The notes under the pieces are model-generated. The model was given only the letters and a program-made list of their open reading frames with translations, did no database searches and was not told the DNA's origin. Positions 5,164-35,786 of a stretch of 64,000 bases of DNA are shown piece after piece. The stretch lies in contig JBEKCB010000014.1 of the NCBI GenBank assembly GCA_050015075.1, positions 1-64,000 of the forward strand, read 5' to 3'. Position 1 is the stretch's first letter. Each line of letters starts with the position of its first letter. Source of the stretch: Candidatus Brocadiia bacterium (GTDB lineage: Bacteria; Planctomycetota; Brocadiia; CAIUPP01). Position numbers and translations under genes: made by a program.

Positions 5164-6783
5164 TCAGTCGGGTTTTCCAAAGCCTCCGCCGCCGGGGGTG
5201 CGTATGCTGAGGATATCCCCCGGATTCAGATAAAAGCTTCCCTTGCCTGGCAATGCCGTCTCCACGCCTGCTCGGATCAGGACATTTTCTCCGCGCATGC
5301 CGCATTCACCTCCTTGCAGACCGTACGGCCCTCGTAAGCGTCTGTCGCTAATCAGGGTAACCTGCGTCTCACCCTCCTGGCTTAGCGTTTGAATGTCTCT
5401 GCGAAGGCCGTCGCCGCCGCGGAAGCGGCCTCTGCCGCCCGAACCCCGCCGGATTTCGTAGCGCAGCACGCGCAGGGGATAGGCATATTCGATCGCTTCG
5501 GCGGGCGTGTTGAGCGTATTGGTCATGTGCGTATGCACGGCCGACAGCCCCGGCGCGGTGGGACGGGCGCCCATGCCTCCGCCGATCGTCTCATAATACG
5601 TGAAAGCGCGCGGCGGTTTCCCGCTGCGGCGGCCGTCGAATCCGCCGATGCTGATGTTATTCATCGTTCCCTGGCTGGCGGCCGGCACGCGCTCCGGGCA
5701 AGCCTGCGCCATCGCGCCCAGGAGGACGTCGACAATTCGCTGCGAGGTTTCCACGTTCCCCGCTGCAACGGGCGCGGGCGGCTGCGCGTTCACGACGCTG
5801 CGCGGCGGCGCGACCGCCTCGATCGGCGCCAGACACCCGGAGTTGTTCGGCGCGTCCAGGCGGAGCAGGCAGCGGAATACGTAGCTGACGGCGGAGAGCG
5901 TGATAGCGTACACGGCGTTCACGCCGGTCGGTTGCTGCGACGCGGAGCCGGTGAAGTCCACGGTCGCGTGATCGCCCTCGATCGTAACGGCGACCCGGAT
6001 GTCCACCGGCTCAGGGGAGACTCCGTTGTCGTCCAACGCATCCGCATAGCGGTACGTGCCGCCGGGCAGCCCGGCGAGGAGTGCGCGTGTCAGCCGCTCC
6101 GTATAGGCCAGAAGTTCGGCCATGTAGAGAGCGACTTCGTCCGTCCCATACCGGGCGACCATCTCCTGCAGCCGGGCGGCGCCGCGCTGGTTCGCAGCCA
6201 CCTGCGCCCAGAGATCGCCGGAACGCTCGTCGGGGGTGCGCACGTTGGCCAGGATCAGATCCAGTACGCCTTGATTGAGCCGCCCGGCGCTGAACAGTTT
6301 CAGCGGCGGGATGATCAAGCCTTCCTGGTAGATTTCACGCGCGACCGGCATGGATCCGGGCGTCATTCCCCCGACGTCCGCATGGTGCGCCCGGCAGGCG
6401 ACGAACCCGAACGGCTCCTCGGCTCCTGAGGGTGAGTTCGACGCGAACACCGGCGTGACGAGGGTAATATCGGGCAGGTGCGTGCCGCCGCGAAAGGGGT
6501 CATTCATGAGGATGGCGTCTCCGCGCACGAGCCCGCCGGAAGTCCGGAAGGCGTCAATGGCGGCGCCCACCGAGAGCGGCATGGACCCGAGATGCACGGG
6601 GATGTGCGCCGCCTGGGCCGCCATTCTGCCCTGGCCGTCAAAGAGCGCACACGAGTAGTCCCGGCGCTCTTTGATATTGGGCGAGTAACTGGCCCGGCGC
6701 AGCACCACGCCCATCTCTTCGGCGATGGAGGTCAGCCGATGCTTGAACACTTCCAGGCGAATCGGATCGGCCACTGGCGTCAC
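5164..6783 (-). CDS. Hydantoinase B/oxoprolinase family protein
   Basis: SPNIKERRDYSCA, HIPVHLGSM, NDPFRGGTHLPD, HHADVGG, GNVETSQR, HTHMTNT. Confidence 0.92.
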   Translation of the reverse strand: MTPVADPIRLEVFKHRLTSIAEEMGVVLRRASYSPNIKERRDYSCALFDGQGRMAAQAAHIPVHLGSMPLSVGAAIDAFRTSGGLVRGDAILMNDPFRGGTHLPDITLVTPVFASNSPSGAEEPFGFVACRAHHADVGGMTPGSMPVAREIYQEGLIIPPLKLFSAGRLNQGVLDLILANVRTPDERSGDLWAQVAANQRGAARLQEMVARYGTDEVALYMAELLAYTERLTRALLAGLPGGTYRYADALDDNGVSPEPVDIRVAVTIEGDHATVDFTGSASQQPTGVNAVYAITLSAVSYVFRCLLRLDAPNNSGCLAPIEAVAPPRSVVNAQPPAPVAAGNVETSQRIVDVLLGAMAQACPERVPAASQGTMNNISIGGFDGRRSGKPPRAFTYYETIGGGMGARPTAPGLSAVHTHMTNTLNTPAEAIEYAYPLRVLRYEIRRGSGGRGRFRGGDGLRRDIQTLSQEGETQVTLISDRRLRGPYGLQGGECGMRGENVLIRAGVETALPGKGSFYLNPGDILSIRTPGGGGFGKPD

Positions 6784-8888: not shown

Positions 8889-8932
8889 CGCCTCCTCGGC
8901 GGTACGCCCGCGTTTCATTCTACGGCAACGCC

Positions 8933-18471: not shown

Positions 18472-18543
18472 CTCCCTAGGCGATTTGCGCTGCGACGCAA
18501 GTCCGACCCGCCGACGGTTTAAGAAAAGGACCCGGCACGATTG

Positions 18544-21500
18544 ATGAGACGATTGTTCCCATTGGCGGCGACGGGGTTCGTCCTGTTCTGCGCGGCGCTC
18601 CAGGCCGCCGAGATCGGTCCGACGGACGTCAAACCGCAGCCTGCGTTGCGGGCCGATGAAAATGCTCTGAAGGACGTTGAGGCGCTCCTGCGTGTCGCGC
18701 CGACCCGCAACATGGGATCGCCGAATCGCGAAGCGCTGGACAAGTACGTGGCCGAACGGTTCAAGGCCACCGGCTTCGAGTGCGGGACCATCAACTTTCC
18801 CACCGCCGCCTTCATCCCCGGCAAGGCCGAAATTCGCCTGCCTGACGGAACCAGCTTTCCTCTCCAAACTCTGGCCCCCAACACGGCGCACCCGGGCAAC
18901 CTGCCTGGCGGGCAGTGGTCGGGGAACCTGGCGGACATGGGTCGCGGTACGCTGAAGGACATCGAGTCCTCCTCGCCGATGAACGCGGCGGTCCTGCTCG
19001 ACATGGACAGCCACCGCGCGTGGGTCACGGCGCTGGAACTCGGGGCGCAGGTGCTGATTTTCGTGGGCGGCGAGCGGGACAACACCCGCCAGGCGGCCGA
19101 AAAACTTTACGTGGCCCCGCTTTCGGTCCCGCGCTTCTATGTGGCGCCCGGCGACGGGGCGGCGCTCCGGAGCGCGCTCCAGGCGCAGAAGACGCTCGCC
19201 GTCCGCATCGTGCAGACCCAGCCGAACCGCTGGGCGAACGTCATGGCGGCGGACGACTGGGTCATCATCCCCGGCGCCGGTCAGGCCGATAAAGTCGTTC
19301 ACATCCAAGCGTACAAGGACGCCGCCAGCATCGTCCCGGCGGCCACTCCCGGCGCGCAGAGCATCTGCAACCTCGCCCTCCTTTTCCGCCTGCTCGACCA
19401 CTACACCCGCTACAAACCGCAATGCACGCTCGTTTTCTCCGCCGTCAGCGACCACTGCAACGCCATGCGCGGCGAGCAGTTCTTCCTCGGCTCCACCTAC
19501 CCTGATGCAGGCGCGCTGGCGGACGAACTGGAGCAACGCGAAAAGGATCGGAAGGAAGCGGAGTTCTACGCCAAGGTTTACGCCGATACTTCCGCTGCGC
19601 AGGTCGGGCGGTTGCGGCAGGACTCGTCCATGGAGACGGGGCAAGCCCTGCAGTTGAAAACGCCGATCGTTGACGAATTGAGCTATCAGCGGAACAAGAC
19701 GAACCGCCGCATATCGCAGATCGCCGATCAGCTTAAAGCCGGGCAGTTATCGCAATCCGTACGCGAGGCGCTGGAGGCGGAAAAGGAAACCCTATGCGGG
19801 AAGGACGGACAAGGCGGCCGGCTCGGCGACCTGGTTGCGATGATGGGCGTCTTCCAGAAATGGCGCAGCAGCGCGACCTTCGAGGCGCTCAGCCCCGAGC
19901 ACCAGGCGGAACTGGTCGCGGTGATGCAGGCGCTGCAGCGGAAGTACCGGGAGCGGGCGGAGGACGCCCGGTCGCAACTGGACCAGATCGAGGCCAACGC
20001 GCGCCTGGGGCGTGCGCTGGCGGGCAAGACGACGCACCTGTACCTGAGCCTGGACCTGACCTTCGGCAACGACCGGATGGGGTTCTTCTATCAGGGATCG
20101 GACCTGCAGGACATCTGGGGGTTTTCCACCGAATGGTCTACGACGGTCGCGCCGCTGGCGCGCCTCTCGGTGGAACTGGCCTCCAAAGTGCCCGGCGGGG
20201 ACCTGCATTTCGCCGACACGATCCAGAACAGCGGCAGCGACTGGCGGAGCCACCTGGGCGACAAGTTCGCCATGGCCGCCTCGAGCGGCGCGGGCCTGGT
20301 CCTGCCGAGCGTGACGCTGACGACCGTCGGCGACACGCGCGACCTGCTGTTCACTCCAGGCGACAGGCTCCAGAATCTGGACGCCGCGCGCGTGGGGAGC
20401 ATGCTGGACTTCGCGAACCGGTTTCTGGTCGAGCTGCTTGAGCATCCGGAGTTTCCGCAGGCGACGCGGCCGGAGCGCGTCCAGAACTTCAACGTGCTCA
20501 CGTATCGCTACAACCTGCGCCGCATGGACCCGTTCTCGGTGGAGATCCCCAGCGAGCGCGTGCGCGACGCGGCGGTGGTCGCCTATCCGGGCGAGCTCGT
20601 CCAGACGCTGCTGCCCGTCGAAGGCCAGGTGGCGATTTGCCAATTGGCGCTGACGGACCGGCAAGGCACGGCGATATTCCGCGCGGCGCCCTGGCCTTTC
20701 GCCATCGAGGCTTACGGCTTCTCTCCGGATTTCGCGCAGATCAACGGAGCCATTGACGCCGGCGCGGGGCTGCGGCGCATGTCGCCGGCCCTGGCCAATC
20801 CCGGGAGCGACTGGGTCTGGGACGACCACCTGGCGCTCCTGTTCGACTGCATCCAGACGGATCTGGTGGGGCTGAATAATCCGTCCACGCGCTCGCCTAC
20901 GCAGCACATGATCCTGCTCGACGCCGTTCAGGAATCCAGCCCGGAGCACTACGGCATCGCCGGGATCAAGGAGGACCGCACCAAGTTCGTTCCCATTCCC
21001 GGCGACGAAGGCATCGGCTGCGTTTTCACCGACGAGGGGATTCCGATCAAGGTCATCTCGACGGACTTCCTGCTGATCAACTCAACGCCCGAGCGGCCGG
21101 ATGGCGTGGGCTACCTGCCGGGCGACCCGCGTCTCAGGACGATCACTTACACGGCGGCGAAGGACATCCAGTCGCTCAACGGCGTGCGGTCGCAGCGGAT
21201 CGAGGGCAAAGGCGTCAGCAGCCTTGCCGCCGACGAGCTGTACGCGCAGGCGGTGGACCTGGTCAAGAGGGCTGAAGCGCAGCGCGCGGAGGGCCGGCAA
21301 GGGAGCTTCTTCAGCACCTCCGTCGAGGCGCTCAGCACCGCCTTGCGCTCTTATCTGATGGTCCGCACCACGACGACGGACCTCATCAAGGCCGTCGCGG
21401 TTTTCCTGGCGCTCGTGATCCCGTTCTGCCTGTTCCTGACGCGGCTGGTCACGCCGTGGACGGACATCCGCGCGCAGATCGCTTCGTTCCTGGTCATCTT

Positions 21501-23541
21501 CACCATCATGGCGCTGAGCCTGGCGTTGCTGCACCCGGCGTTCAGCCTGTCGCAGACACCGATGATGGTGCTGCTGGCCTTCATTATGGTGGGGCTGGCC
21601 ATCTTCGTCATGCTGATCCTCTATACGCGGTTCGACGCGGGCTTGCAGAAACTGGTCGAGGAAGCGCAGGGCGTGGAGTCGTCGGAAAGCTCGCGCAAGA
21701 TGCTCGCCGGGGTGGCGTTCTCCGTCGGGGTCAACAACATGCGGCGGCGGTTCATCCGCACGACGCTGACCGCCGCCACGATCGTGCTGGTGACCTTCAC
21801 GATGTTGTCGGTCATCAGCGTCGGCCAGTCGCTCGTGCCCTACCGCCGCAAGACCGAGGCGAACGTGCCGTACAACGGCGTCCTGTTCGCCAAGCCGGGC
21901 ATGGCGCCCATCTCGCCGAGCACCGCGCTCAGCGTCGTCGGACTCCTCAAGCCGTACGGCACGGTGGTGCTGCGGACGTGGACGCAGCGCCTGGATTCGT
22001 ACGGTGGCTATCTCCTTCAGCCGGTCACCGACCCGGCCCACCCCGACAAAACCATCAGCCTCGACGCGGTGGTCGGAGTGCAGATGACGGAGAACGGTTT
22101 CATCACGCCCATGCCGCTGGTGGCGGGCCGGTGGTTCAGCAGCGACAGCGCGGCGGAGATGGTTCTGTCGGCGGAAACCGCTTCGTACCTGGGCATCGCG
22201 AAGGAGCCGTTCGTCGAGCGGACGCTGGATTTGCGCAACCGCAAGGTCCGCCTCGTGGGGCTGCTGGACGATGCGAAGCTGGCGGCGATCGGCGACCTCG
22301 CGCGGCTGATGCTGCTGCCGCTGAAGAGCATGCCCGACCTCATCACCCACACGGTGTCGGAGACGGGCGCAATGATCGTGAGCGAGGAGGACGCGATGGC
22401 CGGGCCCGCGCCGTCCGCGCAGTCGCTGCGCTCGCAGGAGGTTGCGTTCGTGCCTGTGGACTTCGCGCGCGAACTGCCGGACACCTCCTACCGCTCCATC
22501 GCACTGAAGACGGAGGACGCCGCTTCGGCCTGGGCTGCGGCGAACCACTTCGTTGACGCCACGGGCATACTGACCTACGTGTCCATCCGCGCGCCGATCA
22601 CCACGCCGGACGGCGTTTCCCTCCAGTCCCACCAGTATTCCCTCGGCGCGCCGGTCGGCACTACGATCGGCGGGGCCGGCAAGGTCATCATCCCCATCTG
22701 CCTGGCGGCGACCATCATTCTGAACACGATGCTCGGCACCGTGATGGAGCGGCGCAAAGAGATCGCGGTGTACAACAGCATCGGACTCAACCCGACGCAC
22801 GTCTTCGTCTTTTTCGTGGCCGAAGCCGTGGTCTTCGGGATGATCGGCTCGGTGGCGGGATACCTGATCGGCCAGGGTCTGGCGCAGGCGATCGTGCACT
22901 TCCACTGGCTGCCGGGCGTGAACCTGAACTATTCCTCGATGGCGGTGATGCTGGTCATCTTCGCGGCGATCGTGACCGTCGTCGTCTCGACGCTGTACCC
23001 GGCGTATATCGCCACGCGCGCGGCGGTGCCCTCGGGCCAGCGCCGGTGGAAGCTCCCGCCGCCGGTCGGCGACGAGCTGCATCTGGACTTCCCTTTCAGC
23101 TACAGCGTACAGCAGTTGCCGGGCGTGCTGGCGTACCTGCAAGCGTTCATGGATCTGAACAGCGAGGCGTCTTCGGGCCGGTTCCTGACGCAGGACGCGC
23201 GGTTCGGGTTCGTGCACGACGTGGACGCCCGCAAGGTGCTGGCGATGACGTACAGCGTCACGCCCGTGCCCTTCGACCTGGGCGTCAACCAGCGGATGGA
23301 GGTCTACGGTTATTACCGGCCGCGGGTGCGGGCATACGTGGTCGCCGTCGTGCTTACCCGGCTGAAGGGCGACAAAAAGAGCTGGCTGACGGTGAACGAG
23401 CCGTTCCTGGAATCGTTGCGCGCGCGGCTGCTGAGCTGGCGGTCTCAATCGAGCGTCAACCAGGAGCAGTTCCGCAGGCAAGGCGAGGCGATGTTCGCCG
23501 AAGCTCGTGAATTCCCCGTGCTGGAGAACGCGGTCCGGTGA
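18544..23541 (+). CDS. Giant M28-peptidase-like / MacB-FtsX-like permease fusion
   Basis: Signal peptide; PA/M28-like region (VVHIQAYKD, PGAQS, LVFSAVSDH); 4-TM block; MacB-type NMRRRFIRTTLT TM plus extracytoplasmic core; FtsX motif VMERRKEIAVYNSIG...FVAEA. Confidence 0.75.
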   Translation: MRRLFPLAATGFVLFCAALQAAEIGPTDVKPQPALRADENALKDVEALLRVAPTRNMGSPNREALDKYVAERFKATGFECGTINFPTAAFIPGKAEIRLPDGTSFPLQTLAPNTAHPGNLPGGQWSGNLADMGRGTLKDIESSSPMNAAVLLDMDSHRAWVTALELGAQVLIFVGGERDNTRQAAEKLYVAPLSVPRFYVAPGDGAALRSALQAQKTLAVRIVQTQPNRWANVMAADDWVIIPGAGQADKVVHIQAYKDAASIVPAATPGAQSICNLALLFRLLDHYTRYKPQCTLVFSAVSDHCNAMRGEQFFLGSTYPDAGALADELEQREKDRKEAEFYAKVYADTSAAQVGRLRQDSSMETGQALQLKTPIVDELSYQRNKTNRRISQIADQLKAGQLSQSVREALEAEKETLCGKDGQGGRLGDLVAMMGVFQKWRSSATFEALSPEHQAELVAVMQALQRKYRERAEDARSQLDQIEANARLGRALAGKTTHLYLSLDLTFGNDRMGFFYQGSDLQDIWGFSTEWSTTVAPLARLSVELASKVPGGDLHFADTIQNSGSDWRSHLGDKFAMAASSGAGLVLPSVTLTTVGDTRDLLFTPGDRLQNLDAARVGSMLDFANRFLVELLEHPEFPQATRPERVQNFNVLTYRYNLRRMDPFSVEIPSERVRDAAVVAYPGELVQTLLPVEGQVAICQLALTDRQGTAIFRAAPWPFAIEAYGFSPDFAQINGAIDAGAGLRRMSPALANPGSDWVWDDHLALLFDCIQTDLVGLNNPSTRSPTQHMILLDAVQESSPEHYGIAGIKEDRTKFVPIPGDEGIGCVFTDEGIPIKVISTDFLLINSTPERPDGVGYLPGDPRLRTITYTAAKDIQSLNGVRSQRIEGKGVSSLAADELYAQAVDLVKRAEAQRAEGRQGSFFSTSVEALSTALRSYLMVRTTTTDLIKAVAVFLALVIPFCLFLTRLVTPWTDIRAQIASFLVIFTIMALSLALLHPAFSLSQTPMMVLLAFIMVGLAIFVMLILYTRFDAGLQKLVEEAQGVESSESSRKMLAGVAFSVGVNNMRRRFIRTTLTAATIVLVTFTMLSVISVGQSLVPYRRKTEANVPYNGVLFAKPGMAPISPSTALSVVGLLKPYGTVVLRTWTQRLDSYGGYLLQPVTDPAHPDKTISLDAVVGVQMTENGFITPMPLVAGRWFSSDSAAEMVLSAETASYLGIAKEPFVERTLDLRNRKVRLVGLLDDAKLAAIGDLARLMLLPLKSMPDLITHTVSETGAMIVSEEDAMAGPAPSAQSLRSQEVAFVPVDFARELPDTSYRSIALKTEDAASAWAAANHFVDATGILTYVSIRAPITTPDGVSLQSHQYSLGAPVGTTIGGAGKVIIPICLAATIILNTMLGTVMERRKEIAVYNSIGLNPTHVFVFFVAEAVVFGMIGSVAGYLIGQGLAQAIVHFHWLPGVNLNYSSMAVMLVIFAAIVTVVVSTLYPAYIATRAAVPSGQRRWKLPPPVGDELHLDFPFSYSVQQLPGVLAYLQAFMDLNSEASSGRFLTQDARFGFVHDVDARKVLAMTYSVTPVPFDLGVNQRMEVYGYYRPRVRAYVVAVVLTRLKGDKKSWLTVNEPFLESLRARLLSWRSQSSVNQEQFRRQGEAMFAEAREFPVLENAVR

Positions 23542-25532
23542 GTCCCCGTTTCGGACAAGGCGACAAGGAGCTGGAAGAGTACCGGGACATTATGCCCGTC
23601 CCGGACCATTTCGAGGACGGGTTCAGCGGCAAGACGGTCCTCGGCGCGATCTTCCTGGGGCTCTTCATGCTGCCGGGGTCCATGTACCTGTCGCTCTTCA
23701 TGGGCGGCGGTCTCGGGCCGGCGGCGCGGTGGGTGACCGTCATCCTCTTCTCGGAGGTCGCCCGCCGTTCGCTCAAGAGCCTCAAAGAGCAGGAAATCTT
23801 CATCCTCTTCTACATGACGGGCGTCGCTCTCTCCAGCCCGTTCCAGGGGCTGCTCTGGAACCAGTACCTGGCGCAGTCGCCGGAGGCGCAGGCGATGGGC
23901 GTGGCGCCGCTGATCCCCGCCTGGGTCACGCCCTCGGCCGAACAGATCCGGCAGACCGGCAACACGTTCTTCAGCCGTATCTGGCTGGCGCCCGTGGTGC
24001 TGATCGCCATCCAGTTGCTTATCTCGCGCGTGAACGGGTTCGGGCTCGGCTATGTCCTTTACCGGTTGACGGCGCACTACGAGAAGCTGCCTTTCCCCAT
24101 GGCGCCGGTGTCCGCGCAGGGCGTGCTGGTGCTGGCCGAGGACAAGGAGAACCGCAACCGCTGGCGCCTGACGACGTTCGCCATCGGCGCCATGCTGGGC
24201 GCGCTCTTCGGGTTCGTTTACGTCGGCATCCCGTCGCTGACCGGCTCGATCCTGGGCACGCCGTACCAGTTGCTTCCGAACCCGTGGCTCGACCTGACCA
24301 TCACGACGCAGAACGTCCTGCACGCCACACCGGTCAACCTGGTCTTCGACCTGTCCATTGTGATCGTCGGCATGGTCCTGCCCTTCTGGGCGGTGATCGG
24401 CGGGTTCATCGGCGTGGTCCTCACCTTCATCGCCAACCCGATCCTGCAGCATTACGGCAGGCTGCCCACGTGGCAGATGAATATGGGGCTGGTGGACACG
24501 ATTTACAGCAACCAGATTGACTTCTACCTTTCTTTCGGCATCGGATTGACCTTTGCGATATTCTTCATCAGCCTGGCCTCGGTCGTGTTCCCGCTGTTGC
24601 GGAAGATGGCCATCGGCCGGCCGATCCAGCCCGGCGCGGCCCGCCCGCCGTCGGCGCTGGCGGACGCCCTCCGATACAACCGCCTGCGCGGCGACATCCC
24701 CATCTGGATTTCGCTGGCCATCTACATCATCTCCACCTTCGGCTACATCGCCTTGTGTGCCTGGCTGATTGACGGTTTTCCGTGGATCTTCTTCGTCATC
24801 TTCGCCTTCGTCTATACGCCGCTGATCAGCTACGTCTCGGCCAAGCTCGAGGGGCTGGTCGGCCAGGCCGTCTCGATCCCGCTCGTGCGCGAGTCGGCGT
24901 TCATCCTCTCCGGCTACAAAGGCGTGGCGATCTGGTTCGCGCCGATCCCGCTGGTGGACTACGGACAGGGCTTGCAGTCGTTCCGCGTCGTCGAGCTGAC
25001 CGGCACGAAGATGACGAGCCTGATCAAGACGGAACTGGTGACGATCCCCGTCGTGATCATCGCCAGCTTCCTCTTCTCGGAGTTCATCTGGCGGCTGGGG
25101 CCGATCCCGTCGGAGCAATATCCCTTCACGCAGGAAATGTGGCGGTTGTACGCGCTGAACAGTTGCCTGACGTACACGGCGACCATGAGCGGCGGCTCGA
25201 AGTTCCTCGACGCGCTGGTCCCGTCGTACGTCGCCATCGGGCTGGGGTTCGGCCTGGTGACGTACATCGGCCTGTGGCTGTTGAGCCTGCCGACGCTGCT
25301 GATGTTCGGCCTCGTGCGCGGGATGGGCGCGATGACGCCCGGCCACGTCCTGCCGGAGTTCATCGGCGCGCTGATCGGACGTTATTTCTTCATGAAGAAA
25401 TTCGGCGTGACTCGGTGGCGCCAGATGGCGCCGGTGGTTCTGGCGGGCTTCCTCTGCGGCATCGGCCTGATGGCGATGGCGGCCGTAGGCATCGCCCTGA
25501 TCGCAAAATCTATCTCATCGCTCTTATATTGA
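23538..25532 (+). CDS. OPT/YSL-like polytopic membrane transporter
   Basis: 664 aa with roughly 15 or more hydrophobic segments; EKLPFPMAPV motif similar to the OPT L.FP motif; GTGA overlap with the upstream gene. Confidence 0.65.
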   Translation: MSPRFGQGDKELEEYRDIMPVPDHFEDGFSGKTVLGAIFLGLFMLPGSMYLSLFMGGGLGPAARWVTVILFSEVARRSLKSLKEQEIFILFYMTGVALSSPFQGLLWNQYLAQSPEAQAMGVAPLIPAWVTPSAEQIRQTGNTFFSRIWLAPVVLIAIQLLISRVNGFGLGYVLYRLTAHYEKLPFPMAPVSAQGVLVLAEDKENRNRWRLTTFAIGAMLGALFGFVYVGIPSLTGSILGTPYQLLPNPWLDLTITTQNVLHATPVNLVFDLSIVIVGMVLPFWAVIGGFIGVVLTFIANPILQHYGRLPTWQMNMGLVDTIYSNQIDFYLSFGIGLTFAIFFISLASVVFPLLRKMAIGRPIQPGAARPPSALADALRYNRLRGDIPIWISLAIYIISTFGYIALCAWLIDGFPWIFFVIFAFVYTPLISYVSAKLEGLVGQAVSIPLVRESAFILSGYKGVAIWFAPIPLVDYGQGLQSFRVVELTGTKMTSLIKTELVTIPVVIIASFLFSEFIWRLGPIPSEQYPFTQEMWRLYALNSCLTYTATMSGGSKFLDALVPSYVAIGLGFGLVTYIGLWLLSLPTLLMFGLVRGMGAMTPGHVLPEFIGALIGRYFFMKKFGVTRWRQMAPVVLAGFLCGIGLMAMAAVGIALIAKSISSLLY

Positions 25533-25544
25533 TTTTTGGCCGGC

Positions 25545-27647
25545 ATGGCAGAGACACCGCCTTACAAACGCATTGACGCGGCGCAGCTTGAGGAGATGCA
25601 GCAGTTAGAGCGGCCGACGCTGCGCATCCGTTGGTGGATCGTGCTGCCGCTGGCGATCGTCCTGTGCGGCGTCCAGGCCGCGCTGAACCTCCGCTTTGAG
25701 AACGGCGCGACGGGGGTCTTCCTCATCGCCACCCAGATCTCGATCATCGCCTTCGCCTTCCTGATGTTGTTGTCGCTCGTGCTGAACCCCCTGCTTCGCC
25801 TGACCCGCCTGATGGAGCCGTTCAACCGCGGCGAAATGATGACGCTCTTCGCGGCGCTCTGCGTCTCCGCCGGCATCAGCTCGTTCGGCCTGGTGGACCA
25901 GTTGGTGCCGCTGATCGTCACGCCGTTCAACTCGGAGTACGCCACGCCGCAGAGCGGCTGGAATCAAGACGTGATCCCGCACCTGAACCGGGCCCTGTAC
26001 ATTACCGACATGGCGCGCATCAAGGAGTACCGGGAAGGCTTCCCCTCGGCCGAAGGGCTGTGGCGAAAGATCCCGTGGTCGTTGTGGGTCAAACCGCTGG
26101 CGCTGTGGATGATTTTCGTCTTCGCACTCTATGGCATGTTCTACAGCCTGGCGATGCTGCTGTACGACTCCTGGGCGCGGCGCGAGAAGCTGATATTTCC
26201 CCTGGCGCGGCTTCCCGAGGACCTTCTGAACGACGAGGGCGCCGCCTCCGGCACTCTTTCCTCCACACTGCACAGCGGCCTGTTCTGGATCGGCTTTCTC
26301 TTTGTCCTGCTGCTCCTGAGCTACAATGGCATCTGCCAGGCGGAATTGGTCCGCGGCTTGAACCCGTTGACCCTCGGCATCAAGCAGGACCAGCTCCGGC
26401 AAATGCTGGCCAACTCCGTTTTCAAGGGCATTGCGGACGAGTCGGAATTCGGCTTCCGCTTCCTGATCATCTTTACGGCCATCGGGATCAGCTTTCTCAT
26501 ACCGCTGGAGATTTCCGCGAGCATCTGGATCTACTACCTGATCGGCATGCTCCTGTTCCTGATAGCTTTCTGGACGGCCGCCGGGGCGACGATGGAGTCC
26601 TTCCCGAGCAACTGGCTGTGGGAGAACCACTTCGTCTCCAGCCTGGGTGCAGGCGGACTGCTGGCCTACTCCGCGGCGGCGCTCGTCAAGCTGGTGATCG
26701 AACGCGCAGGCGCTCTCCGGCAGGCGGCCGCGGCGCAGGGGCGGCGGCTCGGCGCCGCGGGCTGGGCGGTGAAGCTGCCGGCCAGCATGGGCTGGGGCGG
26801 TTTGCTCTTCCTGGTGTCGAGCGCGGTGGCCATCGGCTGGCTGGCGTGGTGCCACGTGCCGTGGTACTGGAGTGCGGGCTTCCTGGCGGTCATCGTGCTG
26901 GTGACCGTAGGGCTGATGCGCGTCGTGGCGGAGGGCGGCATCTATTGGTTCCACATCCACGTAGGTCCGTTCCATTTGATCAAGTCGTTCGGTGCGACGG
27001 AGGCGGTGCCGAAGGCCGTCCTGGCGCCGCTCATGCCGATTTATTCGGTGCTGTTCCTGGACATCAAGACGTTCATGGCCCCGGCGGTGATGAACAGCTT
27101 CAAGATGCAGGACGAGACGCGCGCCGCGCGCCGATGGTTTCACACGATCGTGATTGCGGCGAGCCTGGCGACGGTCGCGGTGTCGTTCGTCGCCATTCTG
27201 TACATCGTGTACGGCGTGGGCGCGAACCGGGCGGAACCGTGGTTCTTCACGGTCGGGCCGCAGAGCCTGTTCGACAACACCCAGTTGATGGTCAGCGGCG
27301 GCGCCGCCGGTTCCGGGCAGCACAACTGGATTTTCTACCTCATCGGCGCCGGCTGGGTCCTGCTGAGCATCGGCCTGCGCCGCAAGTTCTTCTGGTGGCT
27401 GCACCCGATCGGCCTGGTGATGCTGGCCAACCCGCTGATCGCGCAGCTTTGGTTCTCCTTTTTTCTCGGCTGGTGCTGCAAGAAACTGGCGGTCAGGTAC
27501 GGCGGTCGGCACATGTTCGCCCGGCTCCGCCCGGCGTTCATCGGGCTGATTTTCGGAGAGTTCGTGGCGGCTTTCACCTGGTCGCTCATCGCCGTCACGA
27601 TGCACTTGAACAAGATCTCGATAGACATTAACAAGTACTATCCGTAG
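25545..27647 (+). CDS. DUF6785/DUF6784-like polytopic membrane protein (distant OPT-like)
   Basis: W..REKLIFPLARLP, W.LHPIG, KLAVRYGG, RPAFIGLIFGE motifs; many TM segments. Confidence 0.7.
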   Translation: MAETPPYKRIDAAQLEEMQQLERPTLRIRWWIVLPLAIVLCGVQAALNLRFENGATGVFLIATQISIIAFAFLMLLSLVLNPLLRLTRLMEPFNRGEMMTLFAALCVSAGISSFGLVDQLVPLIVTPFNSEYATPQSGWNQDVIPHLNRALYITDMARIKEYREGFPSAEGLWRKIPWSLWVKPLALWMIFVFALYGMFYSLAMLLYDSWARREKLIFPLARLPEDLLNDEGAASGTLSSTLHSGLFWIGFLFVLLLLSYNGICQAELVRGLNPLTLGIKQDQLRQMLANSVFKGIADESEFGFRFLIIFTAIGISFLIPLEISASIWIYYLIGMLLFLIAFWTAAGATMESFPSNWLWENHFVSSLGAGGLLAYSAAALVKLVIERAGALRQAAAAQGRRLGAAGWAVKLPASMGWGGLLFLVSSAVAIGWLAWCHVPWYWSAGFLAVIVLVTVGLMRVVAEGGIYWFHIHVGPFHLIKSFGATEAVPKAVLAPLMPIYSVLFLDIKTFMAPAVMNSFKMQDETRAARRWFHTIVIAASLATVAVSFVAILYIVYGVGANRAEPWFFTVGPQSLFDNTQLMVSGGAAGSGQHNWIFYLIGAGWVLLSIGLRRKFFWWLHPIGLVMLANPLIAQLWFSFFLGWCCKKLAVRYGGRHMFARLRPAFIGLIFGEFVAAFTWSLIAVTMHLNKISIDINKYYP

Positions 27648-27689
27648 GATAGTCGTCGCCATGGGAATTTCCGAGGATGTGTTCTGCTG

Positions 27690-28424
27690 ATGACCGGCAC
27701 AAGCGCTGAAATCGTCGTGGACGTTCGGGACGTTCACCGGGAGTTCCGGATCGGCGGCGAGATCGTCCGCGCGCTGCAGGGAATCACCCTGCAGGTCGGG
27801 CGCGCCGAGTTTGTCTCGATCATGGGCCCCTCCGGTTCCGGCAAGACGACGCTCTTCAACATGATCGGAGGGCTTGACGCGCCGACGCGCGGCAGCGTCA
27901 CGCTCCTGGGCCACCCGCTGGGCACGCTGCCCAGCCACATCGTCGCCCGCCTGCGCTGCCGCAAAATCGGCTACATTTTTCAGAGCTACAACCTCATTCC
28001 CGTCCTGACCGCCCTGGACAACGTGGCGCTGCCCTCGCTGCTCCTGGGCCGGCCGCAGGCCGAGGCGCGCAGCCGCGCCGGCGCACAACTCGACCGAGTC
28101 GGCCTCGGCGACCGCCACCACCACCGTCCGGACGAACTTTCCGGCGGGCAGCAGCAGCGCGTCGCCATCGCCCGCGCCTTCGTCAACGAGCCGGCCATCA
28201 TCCTCGCCGACGAACCCACCGGCAACCTCGACCTCAAGACCGGCGAGGAGATCATCCGCATGCTCTCGGTCATGAGCAAGGAAGACAACGTCACGATCAT
28301 CTCCACCACGCATGACCACAAAATGCTTTCCGTGTCGGACCGCGTCGTCTGGGTCGTCGGCGGCAGAATTGACCGGCTGGTCAACCGCGAGGACCTCAAG
28401 ATTCAGGTCGGAAGCATCACATGA
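27690..28424 (+). CDS. ABC transporter ATP-binding protein (LolD/MacB-like)
   Basis: GPSGSGKT, LSGGQQQRVAIAR, ILADEPTGNLD, THD. Confidence 0.92.
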   Translation: MTGTSAEIVVDVRDVHREFRIGGEIVRALQGITLQVGRAEFVSIMGPSGSGKTTLFNMIGGLDAPTRGSVTLLGHPLGTLPSHIVARLRCRKIGYIFQSYNLIPVLTALDNVALPSLLLGRPQAEARSRAGAQLDRVGLGDRHHHRPDELSGGQQQRVAIARAFVNEPAIILADEPTGNLDLKTGEEIIRMLSVMSKEDNVTIISTTHDHKMLSVSDRVVWVVGGRIDRLVNREDLKIQVGSIT

Positions 28425-29098
28425 CCGAGACGCCCGAAGAACTGATGGCGACGCTGACGGCCGAGGCCGCGCACCTGCCGACGAAGACCCTCTTCCAGTT
28501 GGCGTGGGCGGGTCTGCGCGTGCGCCTGGCGCGCTCGCTGGTGACGCTGCTCTCCGTCGTCCTCGCGATCGCCTACCTCAGTTACAGCGGCGTGAGCAAC
28601 GACCTCGTCCAGCGCCTCGCGGGGAGCAAGTCGGACGAAATCTACACGCTGCTGCGCGCCGCCGGGATCGACGTCGAAGCCACCGCCAAGGGCAGCCCGC
28701 TCGACCGCTGGCTGGTGGCCATGGCGCTGCTGACCTGCACGGTCGGCATCGCCAACGCCATGCTCATGTCGGTCACCGAGCGCTTCCGCGAGATCGGCAC
28801 GATGAAATGCCTCGGCGCGGAGAACGGCACCGTGGTCAAGCTGTTCCTCATCGAGTCGGCCATGATCGGCGGCGCGGGGTCGCTCATGGGAATTGTGGTC
28901 GGCCTGCTCATCTGCGTCATCGCCGGCGCGGCGCAGTTCGGCCGGTACTCCATCGAGTACCTGACGTTCGGGTCCGTCATGACGTACGTGGGATTCGCCT
29001 TCGTGGCAGGCGTCGTCCTGTGTCTGATCGGCGCGGGCTATCCGGCGCTCGTCGCATCCCGGATGCGCCCGGTCGAAGCCTTGCGGGTGGAGGAATAA
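28421..29098 (+). CDS. Small FtsX-like ABC permease
   Basis: RSLVTLLSV TM1; MSVTERFREIGTMKCLGA; YPA..ASRMRPVEALR C-terminus. Confidence 0.88.
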   Translation: MTETPEELMATLTAEAAHLPTKTLFQLAWAGLRVRLARSLVTLLSVVLAIAYLSYSGVSNDLVQRLAGSKSDEIYTLLRAAGIDVEATAKGSPLDRWLVAMALLTCTVGIANAMLMSVTERFREIGTMKCLGAENGTVVKLFLIESAMIGGAGSLMGIVVGLLICVIAGAAQFGRYSIEYLTFGSVMTYVGFAFVAGVVLCLIGAGYPALVASRMRPVEALRVEE

Positions 29099-29875
29099 AT
29101 GTCCGGGCAGACCGCCGCCGCTCCGGCGCCCGCCGTCAAGCCGCCGGGCCACGACATCGTCGTCCGCGCCATTGACGTGGTGAAGGACTTCGTCCGCGGC
29201 AAGGAAACCGTCCACGCGCTGCGCGGTGTGAGTCTGGACATCTACCGCGGCGAGTACCTGGCGATCATGGGCCCCTCCGGCTCCGGCAAGAGCACCCTCT
29301 TCAACATGATCGGCGGCCTCGACAAGCCGACGAGCGGGATGGTGTTCCTGGACGACGTGGACATCGCGCAGCTCGACGCGTACGAACTGGCGTGGATGCG
29401 CTGCCGCAAGATCGGCTACATCTTCCAGGCTTACAACCTGCTGCCTACCTTGACGGCGCTGGAGAACGTGACGATGCCGATGCTCTTCGCGAACATAGAT
29501 GCGGACACCGCGCGCGACAAGGGCGCGGCGATCCTCCGCAGGGTCGGCCTCGCCGACCGCATCTTCCACCGCCCCGGCCGCATGTCCGGCGGCCAGCAGC
29601 AGCGCGTCGCCATCGCCCGCGCCATGGCCAATGACCCCGCCATCGTCCTCGCCGACGAACCCACCGCCAACCTCGACCTCAAGACCGGCGAGGAGATCAT
29701 CAATCTCCTCAAAAACCTCAGCATGGAACTGAACGTGACCGTCATCTCCGCCACGCACGACCATAAGATGCTCAACCTCTGCGACCGCGTCGCCTGGATC
29801 CGCGACGGCGCCATCGAGCGGCTGGAAAAGCGCGCGGACCTCAAAATCACCGTCGGCAAGATTGACGGGCAGTAG
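29099..29875 (+). CDS. ABC transporter ATP-binding protein (LolD/MacB-like), second paralog
   Basis: GPSGSGKS, MSGGQQQRVAIAR, VLADEPTANLD, THD. Confidence 0.92.
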   Translation: MSGQTAAAPAPAVKPPGHDIVVRAIDVVKDFVRGKETVHALRGVSLDIYRGEYLAIMGPSGSGKSTLFNMIGGLDKPTSGMVFLDDVDIAQLDAYELAWMRCRKIGYIFQAYNLLPTLTALENVTMPMLFANIDADTARDKGAAILRRVGLADRIFHRPGRMSGGQQQRVAIARAMANDPAIVLADEPTANLDLKTGEEIINLLKNLSMELNVTVISATHDHKMLNLCDRVAWIRDGAIERLEKRADLKITVGKIDGQ

Positions 29876-29899
29876 ACACATCACCCGCCGGAGTCCTTC

Positions 29900-30790
29900 A
29901 TGATATCGGACTGGTCGCCCTTCGCCTGGCAGGGCATTCAGATCGAGACGCCTCGCGCCTGGGAACTGGGATCCGTCACCGGCGACCGCCGGAAAGGCTA
30001 CTTCCGCCTGGATGACGCGGACATGCCGCGCGTCGAGGCGAAGTGGGAGTCGGGCAGTCCCGGCAAGTCCGTCCGTTCGGTGGCGGACCGCTACCTGAAA
30101 AAGGCCGGTTTGGTCGGCGCCGCGGGCGAACGACAGGTGCAACGCAATGTGCGCCTCGCCGAGCCGGCGCACATGGAGACGGAATTCTTCATCACGCGCG
30201 GCGACCCGAACGCCATGCACATGGCCGCGCGTTGCCGCCACTGCGGGCGCGTGGCGCTCCTGCGCGTTTTCTACCGCAGCGATGAGTCGCTCCAGCCCGT
30301 CATCGCGCGCCTCTTCGGCTCGTACCGCGACCACGCGCGCGACGGGAAGACGCCGTGGTCGCTCTACGGTCTCCGGTTCGAAGTCCCGGAGGACTACATC
30401 CTGCTCCGCCACAGCATCCGCGCCGGGCGCGTCGAACTGGAGTTCTTCGGCAAGCGCGCCCGCGCACTGGCCGCGCGGGTCGGCCTTGCGGAAACCGTCC
30501 TCAAGAAAATGAGCCTTCTCGACTGGCTGAAAAAGGATTCCACGAGCCAGTCGCCGCCCTGCCCGCCGGCCTTTACCGAAACGAAGCGCGGAGAGCACGC
30601 CGCCGTCGCCGTCAGCGGCCGCGAACGGTCGCTCGCGCGGAGAATGCTCCGCCGCCGCCGCGTTGCGCGCGGCCTGGCCTGGCATTGCGAGCCCTCGAAC
30701 GCGCTTTATATCGCCCGGTGGTTCGGACGAGAAGAGAAAGTTCCCGATTTTGCCGCGTTCGCGGAATCGTTCCTCTGTCATGAGCCTTGA
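29900..30790 (+). CDS. Hypothetical soluble protein with an internal two-fold repeat
   Basis: Halves begin FAWQGIQIETPRAW and WSLYGLRFEVPEDY and end RCRHCGR...SYRDH and WHCEPSN...SFLCH; co-oriented within the operon. Confidence 0.65.
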   Translation: MISDWSPFAWQGIQIETPRAWELGSVTGDRRKGYFRLDDADMPRVEAKWESGSPGKSVRSVADRYLKKAGLVGAAGERQVQRNVRLAEPAHMETEFFITRGDPNAMHMAARCRHCGRVALLRVFYRSDESLQPVIARLFGSYRDHARDGKTPWSLYGLRFEVPEDYILLRHSIRAGRVELEFFGKRARALAARVGLAETVLKKMSLLDWLKKDSTSQSPPCPPAFTETKRGEHAAVAVSGRERSLARRMLRRRRVARGLAWHCEPSNALYIARWFGREEKVPDFAAFAESFLCHEP

Positions 30791-30819
30791 AAAGACGCTC
30801 GGCGTTCGGAAGGAGACCG

Positions 30820-31239
30820 ATGCTCGCCTTCTGGAAAAAGAAAAGCCCGCAACTTACCCGCGAGGACTCATTCGCTGCGGTCGTCGTCCCGAACCGGCAA
30901 CTGCGCGTCGAACGGAATGCCGAGGGCGTTGTCACGCTCTATGCGCCCTTCCATGCCGCCGTCTTCGTCGAGCGCATCGCCCGGTGGCTCGGCGCGCCCC
31001 CGCGCGCCGGCGAGGCGAAGGTCGAGTTGGACGAGGTCGGCTCCTTCGTCTGGGACCTGTGCGACGGCCGGAGGAACGTCCGCGAGATGGTCGCCTGCCT
31101 CGCCGACAGGTATAAGCTCAATCGCAAGGAAGCCGAAGCCTCGCTGACCGCCTTCCTCCGCAGCCTCGCCGGACGCAACCTCGTCGCCATCGTCATCCTC
31201 AAACGCGAGGAGCAGGCAAGCGAAAAACGCCGGGGGTAG
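30820..31239 (+). CDS. PqqD-family (RiPP recognition element-like) protein
   Basis: VELDEVGSFVWDLCDGRRNVREMV..L...Y.....EAEASL..FL.SL..RNLV winged-helix pattern; AGGAG RBS before ATG 30820. Confidence 0.8.
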   Translation: MLAFWKKKSPQLTREDSFAAVVVPNRQLRVERNAEGVVTLYAPFHAAVFVERIARWLGAPPRAGEAKVELDEVGSFVWDLCDGRRNVREMVACLADRYKLNRKEAEASLTAFLRSLAGRNLVAIVILKREEQASEKRRG

Positions 31240-31268: not shown

Positions 31269-34200
31269 TCACCAGCAGAAGAAACGATACGGGTCGTCCC
31301 ACGCCTCGGGCTGGTCCAGGTAAAGGCCGTCGAGCCACCGCTTCTCCGTTTTGTCGGGCGCGGCGGGACTGCCGAAGCGCGCCAGGAGCGGCGTGGAGCC
31401 GGCGACGCCCATGTCGGCCAAGATGCGCGTCAGCAGGAACGAGGCGCGCCGGTACGTGCGCCTGAGATTGTATTGCTCGACGAATTGGAAATAGTAGGGT
31501 TCGGAGCCCTTCTCGAAGCTCGGGTTGGCGCAGAGGTTCCGCGGCGCCGCATGGGCCTGGGCCGCCGCTCCTTCGGCGGGCGGCTTCGGCGCGACGTATT
31601 CCCCTTCGTAAAGCCGGAACAGGTCGGCCCTGAACCGGCCGCCGTCCTGCGCGCAAGCGACGTATGCCTGCCAACTCTCCGGGAACGGCTTCTCGCACGT
31701 GAACGTGACGTGCAGGTCCGTCCATTCGTTCTCCGGGATCACGACGTCCGGACCCTTCGCAGCGCGGTCCCAGGGGCTGCCGGCGCGCTCCACCTCCAGG
31801 TGCGCCGTAACCGGACCGGCCACGCCTTTGATCCGGACGGCAAACGTGTACGCCTTACCGACCTCCGGCGCCGCCTTCAGGCGCTGGCCGAACTGCCCGC
31901 CCGCCTCGGACGTCGTGCCCAGGGTCACCAGCGCGCTCGGCTTCCCGTCCGCCGCGCCGCCGGCATCCACCTGGAATGACGTGACCGCTCCTTCCGCGCG
32001 GGTGATTTCGTACGGCAGGAGCTGGCAGAAGATGACATTCATGTCCTGCGCTTTCGCCAGCACGCCGTCGCCGAACGGCGCGGCCCCCGCCGTTACGAGA
32101 GGCAGCCGCAGCGCGCCGCGGTCATGGACGTCCGCCGGGCTGACCCCGGCGAGAAGGGAATCCGCGCCGAACGGCTCGAAGAATGCGGCGATGTGCTCCT
32201 GCCGGTTCGTGCGGATCGGCGTCGGCAGAAACGAATTTGCCTCCTGCGCGTCGAGCCCGAGAGCCAGCAGGTTGCCGCCCGCCTTCAGGAACTCGGCGAT
32301 GGCTGAGGCGTGTGCGGCGAGCTCTTTTCCGCCGCCGGTCCCGACGACGAGTACCCGGTCGGGCGAGAGACTGCCTCCCTCGTAGGAACTCAGGGCGATG
32401 CCGGCGCGCTCCAGGTGGCGCTTTCCCGCCGGACCGCCGACGTAGAGCGCTTCCCGGCGAGCGGCCGGTTTCCAGGTGGACGCGTACTGCACGATGTTCG
32501 CCGCCAGCGCCTCGGCGGCCGGGTCGCTCTCGGTGCGCCCGCTCACGTCCATCTGGCAGAAGAGGACCATCCCTTTGCCCTCGCGGTACTCCATCAGCGG
32601 GCTGTACTGCAGGCTGTAGCCGCCGTCCAGGATCGGCAGGAAGTCGCCGCGGGCGGGCTTCTCGATCAGGACCGAGGCGACGTTGCCGCGACAGCCGCAT
32701 CGCCAGATGCGCGGCACGTCAATCCCGCACCACTGGACCACCGGCGTATCGGACTGGTAGGCCGGGCCGATCCGGTAGTCCAGGCGCGGCGGCAGGAGTG
32801 TCGCCTCGCCGCGCCAGTCGCGAAAGTTCTCCGCCTCGATTCCTGAGAGCAGCGGGCGGTCCGGCACGCGCTTGAAGACCTGCCTGAGCCCGTACTCCGT
32901 CGTGCGGAACCCGAGCCGCTTCTGCAGGGCCTCCGAGCTCTGCTCGAAGACGACGACCCGCAGGCCATCGCGCACGCGCGCGAGGTCAGGGGCCGGTCCG
33001 TCCACGGTCAGGGCGCTCTTGCCTATGACTAGGAGGTCGTATCCGCTGAGGTCGGCCTGCGCATCCACGGACTGGTACGATGCGCCCATCCCGTCCAGCA
33101 GTTTTCCGGTCTCGCCCTTGGGGTCGAAGAGCGCTATCTTGGAGTGATTGGACAAAGTTCTCGCGGCCGGCATGACGTTGACCGCGAAGGAATCCTGCTG
33201 GCTCTCTCCGGTGCTGAACTTGACTGTCGCGGTCAACTCGTACGGGCCGGGCGCCACTTCAGCCGGAAGTTCGAAGCGAAGCGGCATGCGCGCCTGCTCT
33301 CCGATCTCCACGGCGACCTGTTTCGCGCCGACCAGCGGTTGCGGCAGGCCCAGCGACCAAGCGCAGTCGCACGTCACCGGCTCGCGCGAGTCGTTGATGA
33401 TGATGAGCTGCTTGGCGACGGTCTCGCCCGGCCGGAAATTGTGGTCCTTGCTGATGAAAACCGTCGGCCCGCCGCCGATGTAGGCCAGCAGCGGCATGTT
33501 GTTGCGCATCACGGCCTGGGCCGCCGGCGTGGGGATCCAGTCGGAACGCTCGAAGGCCGTCGCCATGTTCACATCCTGCGCGTCAATGTAGTCCGGGCTG
33601 AACCCCGGCCGCTGGAGGCGATCCCAGTCCACCTTGAATTCCCTGCGGCCCTGGTCAACGCCGTCGCGCAGTTTCCAGTAGCCGTCGCATTCCCAGGGGC
33701 CGAACGCCGACATCCCCCAGGTGCGAAACGCGCGCCAGTTGTCCGTGATGTACATGGCCATTGCCGGGTACTGCTCCGCGAACGCCTGCGTGCCGATCTG
33801 GTAGGGGTAGTCCCACCGATGCCACAGAGCGCCGGCGCGAAACTTCAGGCTCTCCCAGCGCAGGCACCGTTTCTCCACCTCGCTGATCCGAAAAGCCTCA
33901 GCCCCGAAGAACTGCGAATTCCACTCCGCCAGGCACAGCTCCCAGGGAACCGCGGCGCTGCCCCATTCGCGCGCGCCCCGGTACCAGCCGCGGTACATGG
34001 CGAAGTCCCAGCCGCCCGGCGCGGCGAACTCGGTCAGGAAGAGCGGCTTGACGCCGACGGTGGCCCAGTGCTCGAACCAGTCGTCGAGTTCCTGGATCGG
34101 AACGAAGTTGGGGTAGAAGTTGTTCGTGTGCATCGTGCCGAGGTTGCCGGAGGAGTGGTGGTAGACGATGCGCTCCGGGTCGAGCCGGTTCACGATCGCC

Positions 34201-35714: not shown

Positions 35715-35786
35715 TATCCGGCGCTCCGATCCACATAACCCGGGACTCGTCATTTGACCGACCTTCGCGAACAGTCAACGCTCGAA

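Follow-up and report, generated by a model that had tools for sequence, protein, structure and literature searches.

A 64,000-nt stretch of contig JBEKCB010000014.1 from a Candidatus Brocadiia bacterium, referred to below as the window, carries eight tightly packed, co-oriented open reading frames (ORFs) on the + strand between position 18541 (or 18544, depending on the start codon of the first gene) and position 31239. The set, named here g1 to g8, joins genes of an ATP-binding cassette (ABC) motor to genes of permeases resembling the oligopeptide transporter/Yellow Stripe-like (OPT/YSL) superfamily. The ORF list and the translations gave the following layout.

18541-23541, + strand: g1 ("BIG"), giant M28-like/MacB/FtsX protein of 1666 aa; TTG start at 18541, alternative ATG at 18544
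23538-25532, + strand: g2, polytopic membrane protein of 664 aa, putative distant member of the OPT/YSL superfamily
25536-27647, + strand: g3, membrane protein of 703 aa with DUF6785 and DUF6784
27690-28424, + strand: g4, ABC ATPase 1 of 244 aa, LolD/MacB/FtsE type
28421-29098, + strand: g5, small FtsX permease of 225 aa with four transmembrane helices
29099-29875, + strand: g6, ABC ATPase 2 of 258 aa
29900-30790, + strand: g7, cytoplasmic protein of 296 aa with a PsbP/Mog1-like model
30787-31239, + strand: g8, small cytoplasmic PqqD-like protein of the RRE type (recognition element of ribosomally synthesized and post-translationally modified peptides, RiPPs); probable start at ATG 30820

ABC and permease genes overlap at their starts and stops, with GTGA at the g1/g2 junction (23538-23541) and ATGA at the g4/g5 junction (28421-28424). 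The g5/g6 junction is TAA-ATG (29096-29101), and the other intergenic gaps measure 3, 42 and 24 nt. An earlier interpretation made from the letters alone, here called the sequence-only reading, had described eight co-oriented genes of this composition with GTGA at 23538, ATGA at 28421 and TAA-ATG at 29098/29099; ORFs, translations and domain searches bore out the composition, and the sequence matches the junctions exactly. It had placed the start of g1 at ATG 18544, a codon that is present, although the ORF itself opens at TTG 18541. For g8, the ATG at 30820, with GGAGA five bases upstream, is more probably the start codon as judged from this spacing, and would give a protein of 139 aa instead of 150. 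A scan of the region for promoter and terminator consensus sequences returned site counts not above those of shuffled sequence. The gene downstream of g8 is convergent (31269-35753, minus strand).

The arrangement of the eight genes is real and exceeds chance, because the set is found again in several phyla and in a second copy within the same genome. This second, rearranged cassette lies on contig C2, adjoins a glutamate synthase gene and encodes, in this order, two DUF6785 proteins, an FtsX protein of ~490 aa, a first ATPase, an M28/FtsX protein of 1578 aa, an OPT-like protein and a second ATPase. When species genomes were scanned with the g2 alignment, at least 599 candidate stretches came up, of which at least 574 were confirmed to encode a g2 relative. 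Eighty loci were kept for the analysis of synteny, and the 42 with at least 8.8 kb upstream and at least 6 kb downstream were counted. A DUF6785 gene was present in 41 of the 42 loci, the gene for the giant protein in 39, an ATPase gene in 38, a small FtsX gene in 37 and a PqqD-like gene in 30; a g7-like gene was found in 22, a lower bound because g7 similarity is only 20-32%. The loci were labelled Planctomycetota, Verrucomicrobiota, Lentisphaerota, Kiritimatiellota, Thermodesulfobacteriota and Acidobacteriota, and most carriers among the matches listed were Thermodesulfobacteriota of the sulfate-reducer type. Cultured carriers are Desulfatibacillum alkenivorans DSM 16219, Solidesulfovibrio aerotolerans DSM 16695, Oligosphaera ethanolica DSM 24202 and Desulfopila sp. 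IMCC35008.

Three gene orders were found: FtsX-ATPase-BIG-DUF-OPT-(exported ~200-aa ORF)-g7-PqqD in Thermodesulfobacteriota and one Acidobacteriota record, ATPase-(PqqD)-BIG-OPT-DUF-FtsX-ATPase in the Lentisphaerota, Verrucomicrobiota and Kiritimatiellota records, and ATPase-FtsX-ATPase-BIG-OPT-DUF in Planctomycetota. The ~200-aa ORF, whose N-terminus is hydrophobic and signal-like, separates the OPT-like from the g7-like gene in all 16 Desulfobacterota loci examined (L024, L040, L044 and 13 others) and is absent from the operon in the window. Closer to the window, a genome of the same family (G002) contains all eight genes in the same order at 41-87% identity. Synteny in other genomes, on which the sequence-only reading had staked its proposal, is therefore found both in the 42 loci and in G002. 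Among 41 relatives, the window's own genome included, g1, g2 and DUF6785 occurred in exactly the same 24, which comprise all members of families f1, f2, f3, f5 and f6, and in none of the 13 genomes of f4 (96-100% complete) or the 4 of f7; kin are not independent, so this co-occurrence is reported as a pattern and no statistical test is attached to it. The sequencing runs that contain the window's DNA are labelled peat or wetland metagenome, with no RNA run among those listed.

The giant protein g1 combines an exported domain with an ABC permease, and its domain order was read as follows.

N-terminus: predicted signal peptide (hydropathy)
~26-640: M28/PA-like ectodomain with a degenerate metal site and an inserted helical stretch
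up to ~945: further periplasmic region
948-1027: three extra transmembrane helices (hydropathy), with an invariant HPAF motif at 998-1001
1074-1273: MacB periplasmic core domain (MacB_PCD, PF12704, 32.6 bits, cut-off 27)
1386-1493: FtsX domain (PF02687, 52 bits, cut-off 25.5) with four helices
1498-1666: conserved cytoplasmic tail of 167 aa

A g1 family profile, built from an alignment of 20 members and searched against the PDB, matched the PA-domain M28 aminopeptidases 2ek8 (E=4.4e-14) and YwaD (6hc6, E=7.9e-13), with weaker matches to nicalin, transferrin receptor and nicastrin; its membrane part matched MacB (E=1.3e-13) and YtrF, LolF and LolC chains. The M28-like label of the sequence-only reading holds for this family profile (2ek8) and for the paralog in the second cassette, which reaches M28 (PF04389) at E=6.8e-7, but the g1 sequence alone has no Pfam M28 match. 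Motifs of the M28 di-zinc and catalytic site (HxD, GAxDD, EE and HTxxD, read with the 2ek8/YwaD alignment) were then scored. Similarity to the M28/PA scaffold is retained, and the canonical di-zinc ligands and the catalytic Glu are not kept in g1: the His of HxD occurs in none of the 20 family members (Y258 in g1), the GAxDD position reads GAQS in g1 and GADE in Desulfobacterota members, the EE position in g1 is D-H (SDH) with H305 ~90% conserved, and the HTxxD position in g1 is FTPGD. D260 is invariant in the old active-site region of the family. These replacements confirm the earlier call of a pseudo-peptidase. Because the canonical di-zinc site is lost, the ectodomain is read from its sequence as a putative binding or gating module and not as a peptidase.

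The PADLOC model PDLC01991 (CARF_m8--CARF_LolE_TM) matched g1 residues 963-1511 (E=4.2e-47), its positions 88-384 and 426-567 aligning with g1 963-1288 and 1365-1511, and had no match to g1 1-939 or to the tail 1500-1666 at E<=1. A defence-system reading of this match was rejected because the match is limited to the membrane module; a literature search on CARF and LolE gave nothing relevant. The tail had no usable match in the ESM Atlas. Larger versions of ~3,000 aa were seen in G011 (L094:2337-11726) and G005 (L095:3636-12428), both extended by Ig-like (Big_5) domains in front of the PA/M28 part; at L094 the giant gene is followed by an OPT-like gene with a ~180-residue insertion.

The small permease g5 scored 60.9 bits against the FtsX family (PF02687, cut-off 25.5), and both g1 and g5 contain the four-helix transmembrane domain of the FtsX type. 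By hydropathy and sequence, the loop between the first two transmembrane helices of g5 spans only ~40 residues, so g5 has no MacB-type periplasmic domain; the large domain at this position is present in g1 (PF12704) and absent from g5. The two ATPases are 59% identical, scored 116 (g4) and 123 bits (g6) against Pfam ABC_tran, and are both intact in Walker A, Q-loop, LSGGQ signature, Walker B-Glu and H-loop. Their top NCBIfam matches were LolD, YbbA, DevA, FtsE and MacB, with LolD the best for g4 at 214 bits; the LolD scores of the two (214-229 bits) stay under the cut-off of 307.75. Against the NCBIfam LolCDE, MacB and FtsEX equivalogs, which have cut-offs of 225-966 (362-966 for LolC, LolE and MacB), g1 scored 13-30 bits and g5 scored 12-48 bits. 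These similarity scores place g1, g5, g4 and g6 in the type VII ABC group (MacB/FtsX superfamily) and outside the LolCDE, MacB and FtsEX equivalogs.

In a quick IQ-TREE phylogeny, the ATPases formed two groups with a support of 91 in the Shimodaira-Hasegawa-like approximate likelihood ratio test, below the tool's mark of 95. Each cassette of the Planctomycetota-Verrucomicrobiota-Chlamydiota (PVC) group has one ATPase of each type in this tree: genes of the g4 type (A-type) adjoin the small FtsX gene, and genes of the g6 type (B-type) adjoin the giant gene or lie towards it. The sole ATPase of the Desulfobacterota cassettes is of the g6 type. The tree fits, and does not prove, a heterodimeric motor with two ATPase types, and to that extent agrees with the heterodimeric type VII module proposed in the sequence-only reading. 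Type VII ABC systems are reported to work mechanically in the periplasm, with a function set by partner proteins that include membrane partners such as BceS (PMC12646458).

Both large permease candidates are very distant in sequence from known transporters. No Pfam family matched g2 at E<=0.1. Its 45%-identical paralog reached PF03169 with 28.5 bits (cut-off 25.8, E=8e-7), only 2 of 16 g2 family members did so at E<=0.01, and some of the 4186 relatives found are named 'peptide transporter' or 'OPT/YSL family transporter' in public sources. Copies of g2 in other phyla are 51-56% identical to it, compared with 22-37% for g1 and 23-40% for g3. On this sequence evidence, g2 appears to be a distant and unusually conserved member of the OPT/YSL superfamily. 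For g3, Pfam gave DUF6785 (251.6 bits, cut-off 25) and DUF6784 (76.2 bits, cut-off 26.4) and no PF03169 match. Its AlphaFold2 model (pLDDT 74.8, pTM 0.77) retrieved only barley HvYS1 from the PDB with Foldseek (7wst/7wsr, TM-score 0.61/0.70, E=7e-7), all other matches having a TM-score of ~0.1; as modelled, g3 adopts the OPT/YSL fold of Yellow Stripe 1, and the fold is the only level at which it is OPT-like. Family profiles of g2 and g3 found nothing among PDB sequences at E<=1. The earlier claim of two OPT-like permeases thus stands for g3 by fold and tentatively for g2 through its paralog, although g2 itself has no Pfam match and g3 is a DUF protein; the figure of ~15 transmembrane helices for each is approximate, crude hydropathy having picked out 10 for g2 and 14 for g3. 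A search for longer relatives returned no fusion of g2, which is weak evidence. HvYS1 is described as a homodimeric, proton-coupled, elevator-type importer, in an account according to which all characterised OPT/YSL members import (PMC9691689). Since HvYS1 is dimeric, the two paralogs g2 and g3 could pair, and by this analogy they probably do.

No Pfam or NCBIfam family was found for g7. Its AlphaFold2 model (pLDDT 84.4) has an alpha/beta fold similar to PsbP and Mog1, in what seems to be a tandem arrangement, with TplEi/Tli4, PsbP and Mog1 as the best Foldseek matches (probability up to 1.00, E 7e-5 to 1e-3, TM-score 0.3-0.55). C112 and C115 (a CxxC pair), D144 and H145 are nearly invariant in an alignment of 23 sequences. 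The family comprises 1814 cluster representatives at E<=0.001; the best 150 relatives are all 224-362 aa long and include no fusion, every match that was checked is near full length, and the look-alike clusters in the ESM Atlas are all unnamed. The last protein, g8, exceeded the Pfam cut-off for PqqD (PF05402, 53.6 bits, cut-off 23.4) and fell below every PqqD-type cut-off of NCBIfam (PQQ_PqqD, 30.7 bits against 46; lasso-peptide RRE, 30.6 against 80). PqqD-type domains bind precursor peptides before modification or export.

Taken together, it is very probable that the eight genes form one operon encoding one functional, conserved system of the inner membrane. For its function we tentatively favour, with somewhat less than even confidence, an importer in which we infer the physical assembly of the ABC and OPT parts, the direction and the substrate. 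The motor would be an asymmetric type VII ABC complex composed of g1, the minimal FtsX protein g5 and the ATPases g4 and g6, which would represent two old paralog types. Type VII ABC proteins have no transport pore, which leaves the OPT/YSL-fold permeases g2 and g3 as the sole plausible transmembrane path. The g1 ectodomain would capture a peptide-like or chelate-like solute in the periplasm, ATP-driven mechanotransmission would pass the solute to the OPT-fold pair or open the pair, and the pair would move it inward by an elevator-type movement, after which the peptide-binding, PqqD-like g8 and the PsbP/Mog1-like g7 may receive the cargo, or may regulate the machine. Import of such a solute is favoured because all characterised OPT members import. 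A bolder form of the proposal, possible though doubtful, is a hybrid primary/secondary transporter in which the type VII motor would spend ATP on loading, gating or driving an OPT-fold heterodimer of the elevator type. Contacts would be made through the three extra, motif-bearing transmembrane helices of g1 or through its cytoplasmic tail, the receptor-like dead peptidase would trap substrate in the periplasm, and a peptide binder of the RRE type would act inside. If true, this would represent a new logic of high-affinity uptake in diderm anaerobes lacking binding-protein ABC importers for the cargo.

Several observations weigh against the importer model. Only one ATPase gene is found in cis at 31 of the 42 loci (two at 7, none at 4), and at 3 of the 42 the DUF6785, OPT-like, g7 and PqqD genes occur without giant or ABC genes in the flank. 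Comparison of the g2 and g3 family profiles gave a probability of 2.2%, the only similarity being weak and confined to the surroundings of E[KR]LxFP[ML]A. The operon contains no pqq, radical-SAM or RiPP maturase gene that would explain the PqqD-like protein, and the 60 ORFs flanking 12 PVC cassettes offer no hint of a substrate, no Pfam family occurring in more than 2 of them (BNR in 2, Melibiase in 1). Close paralogs of g3 stand alone elsewhere in the genome, on C8 (77% identity) and C9 (84%), and in relatives a single genome can have as many as 15 matches to DUF6785, mostly at a distance from the sites that match the giant protein; such proteins evidently can work without a motor in cis. To our knowledge, all characterised OPT members are self-sufficient and proton-driven, and we know of no type VII system that feeds a permease. 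No experiment or confident model has the ABC and OPT parts touching. A complex prediction for g1[945-1100], g1[1500-1666] and g2 returned no answer (score 0.00, no controls) and speaks neither for nor against contact.

The alternative that survives best, although we judge it unlikely, is an export or extraction machine that would move a cytoplasmic peptide or a membrane-embedded lipid or lipopeptide outward through the OPT-fold pair. The PqqD-like RRE, perhaps together with g7, would bind the peptide, the motor would pull the substrate out of the outer leaflet, and the ectodomain would hold it or pass it on, as in LolCDE and YbbAP. The binding of precursor peptides by PqqD-type domains suits this scheme, and the ~200-aa signal-like ORF of the 16 Desulfobacterota loci could encode a periplasmic acceptor, yet the window's operon lacks that ORF and, by Pfam and NCBIfam, any gene for a precursor peptide or maturase and any MacA/TolC-type gene for an adaptor or outer-membrane component. 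Type VII ABC systems are described as characteristically extracting or expelling substrates from the periplasmic side (PMC12646458), whereas the characterised OPT/YSL members all run inward (PMC9691689).

Still less probable is an FtsEX-like regulator combined with recycling, in which ATP would switch an ectodomain that controls envelope hydrolysis, or retains it in a non-canonical form, while the OPT-fold permeases take up the peptides set free. In its favour, FtsEX-type systems are reported to regulate periplasmic hydrolases by mechanotransmission (PMC12646458), the invariant D260 and the ~90% conserved H305 persist around the old active site of the ectodomain, Desulfobacterota members have GADE at the GAxDD position, and OPT members do carry peptides. 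Against this stand the loss of the first His ligand from all 20 family members, the changed EE and HTxxD positions and the absence of a hydrolase gene among the conserved neighbours.

We consider it very unlikely that the genes encode independent transporters that are merely co-located, namely an ordinary MacB-like pump and two unrelated secondary carriers. Their linkage persists in at least five labelled phyla although the order of the genes has changed, g1, g2 and DUF6785 share one pattern of presence and absence across the 41 relatives, and start and stop codons of ABC and permease genes overlap at the GTGA and ATGA junctions. What speaks for independence is that g3-type genes also work alone elsewhere. 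In a quick IQ-TREE phylogeny of DUF6785, the genes of the PVC cassettes, including g3 and its G002 ortholog, formed one clade with a support of 100, and the genes of the Desulfobacterota and Acidobacteriota cassettes and the C2 pair formed two other clades. The standalone copies on C8 and C9 nest with g3 within the PVC cassette clade and are therefore viewed as recent escapes. The neighbours of standalone DUF6785 genes showed no family in more than 2 of 82 ORFs (17 of 20 loci); in the other 3 loci no ORF was labelled DUF6785. Both in this tally and in that of the 60 ORFs around PVC cassettes, ORF calling was crude and took the longest non-overlapping frames.

Import of oligosaccharides or glycopeptides for the neighbouring lyase and glycoside hydrolase (GH) genes, in place of SusC/D or binding-protein ABC importers, had been the preferred function in the sequence-only reading; it draws on the heparinase II/III-like gene and the GH129/carbohydrate-binding module (CBM) gene that precede the operon and the CBM/GH2-like giant protein that it faces, but is most improbable and unsupported because the link to carbohydrate-active genes is not conserved: none of these flanking genes adjoins the G002 operon, the 60 flanking ORFs contain no recurrent family, the C2 cassette lies beside glutamate synthase, and most listed carriers are sulfate-reducer-type Thermodesulfobacteriota.

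Other features were noted around DUF6785 genes and in the window. G015, G033 and G039 each have 14-15 DUF6785 matches, which often stand three in a row as tandem arrays; such numbers suggest that DUF6785 is a major, unstudied carrier family in the class. The C9 copy (L009:8130-12878; identity to g3, 84%) begins 4 nt ahead of the stop codon of an MttB-superfamily methyltransferase gene, with a GH4 gene upstream and a radical-SAM/SPASM gene downstream, and another MttB-family gene lies ~4.6 kb upstream of the C2 cassette. A 40-residue match at C30:46750-46869 (L012), 85% identical to the g3 N-terminus, not continued and located beside a 475-aa ORF, looks like the remnant of a DUF6785 gene. In G010, a 2536-aa ORF (L093:3983-11593) has DUF6785 and DUF6784 in its last ~640 residues and no Pfam family in the first ~1,900. 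Outside the conserved cassette, the window encodes an ABCB-type exporter of 764 aa (ABC_membrane and ABC_tran; 36406-38700, minus strand) and a hydantoinase/oxoprolinase A-type protein (6780-8918, minus strand), whose gene adjoins 472-aa and 344-aa ORFs with no Pfam matches.

Current understanding confines type VII ABC systems to periplasmic action and treats OPT transporters as self-contained proton symporters. An ABC-OPT cassette present in hundreds of species of the PVC group, Thermodesulfobacteriota and Acidobacteriota points to an unrecognised coupling of ATP to transport or envelope work, and would provide a first functional context for DUF6785/DUF6784, for the g7 family and for the g2 branch of OPT. 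The cultured carriers make the question directly testable. The papers searched (supplementary files excluded) yielded none on DUF6785 or DUF6784 and none joining FtsX with OPT or PqqD, in line with the earlier statement that no characterised system combines these parts.

Each part of the cassette has a known counterpart from which it departs. The g1 ectodomain shares the M28/PA scaffold with aminopeptidases such as 2ek8 and YwaD by profile similarity, and differs from them in its replaced metal ligands, its long helical insertion and its fusion to an ABC permease. In retaining the scaffold after loss of catalysis it recalls transferrin receptor, nicastrin and nicalin, which are non-catalytic, receptor-type relatives of M28. 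The PADLOC model PDLC01991 has the extra transmembrane helices, the periplasmic domain and FtsX in common with g1; the ectodomain and the tail are unmatched, and no CRISPR or defence genes lie near the operon. With OPT/YSL proteins the likeness lies in the g3 model, which superposes only on HvYS1, and in the g2 family, which touches PF03169, but the sequences of g2 and g3 are very remote and are encoded together with an ABC motor, whereas the known members are autonomous proton symporters. The g7 model best resembles PsbP/Mog1-fold proteins and Tli4/TplEi, two-domain immunity proteins of the type VI secretion system; TM-scores are low and no sequence family is shared, and g7 is cytoplasmic, carries CxxC...DH and has no type VI secretion context. 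As for g8, it resembles PqqD/RRE proteins by its Pfam score above the cut-off, and is set apart by the missed NCBIfam cut-offs and by an operon without pqq or RiPP maturase genes.

The closest relatives of the cassette as a whole are the type VII ABC systems MacAB-TolC, LolCDE, FtsEX-EnvC, YbbAP-TesA and BceAB-BceS, with which it shares the four-helix FtsX domain and ATPases of the LolD/MacB/FtsE type. The MacB-type periplasmic core domain is common to MacB and g1, the g1/g5 pair is asymmetric like LolC/LolE, the cassette probably also takes its function from its partners, and BceAB-BceS is described as a precedent for a membrane partner of a type VII ABC protein (PMC12646458). Unlike these systems, the cassette has three extra transmembrane helices, a ~950-aa M28/PA-like ectodomain and a conserved cytoplasmic tail in g1, and a second permease, g5, with almost no periplasmic domain. 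It contains no MacA/TolC, LolA/B, EnvC or kinase partner; in their place, the conserved partners are the two permeases of the OPT fold together with the PsbP-like and PqqD-like proteins, which makes it a type VII ABC variant with unprecedented partners.

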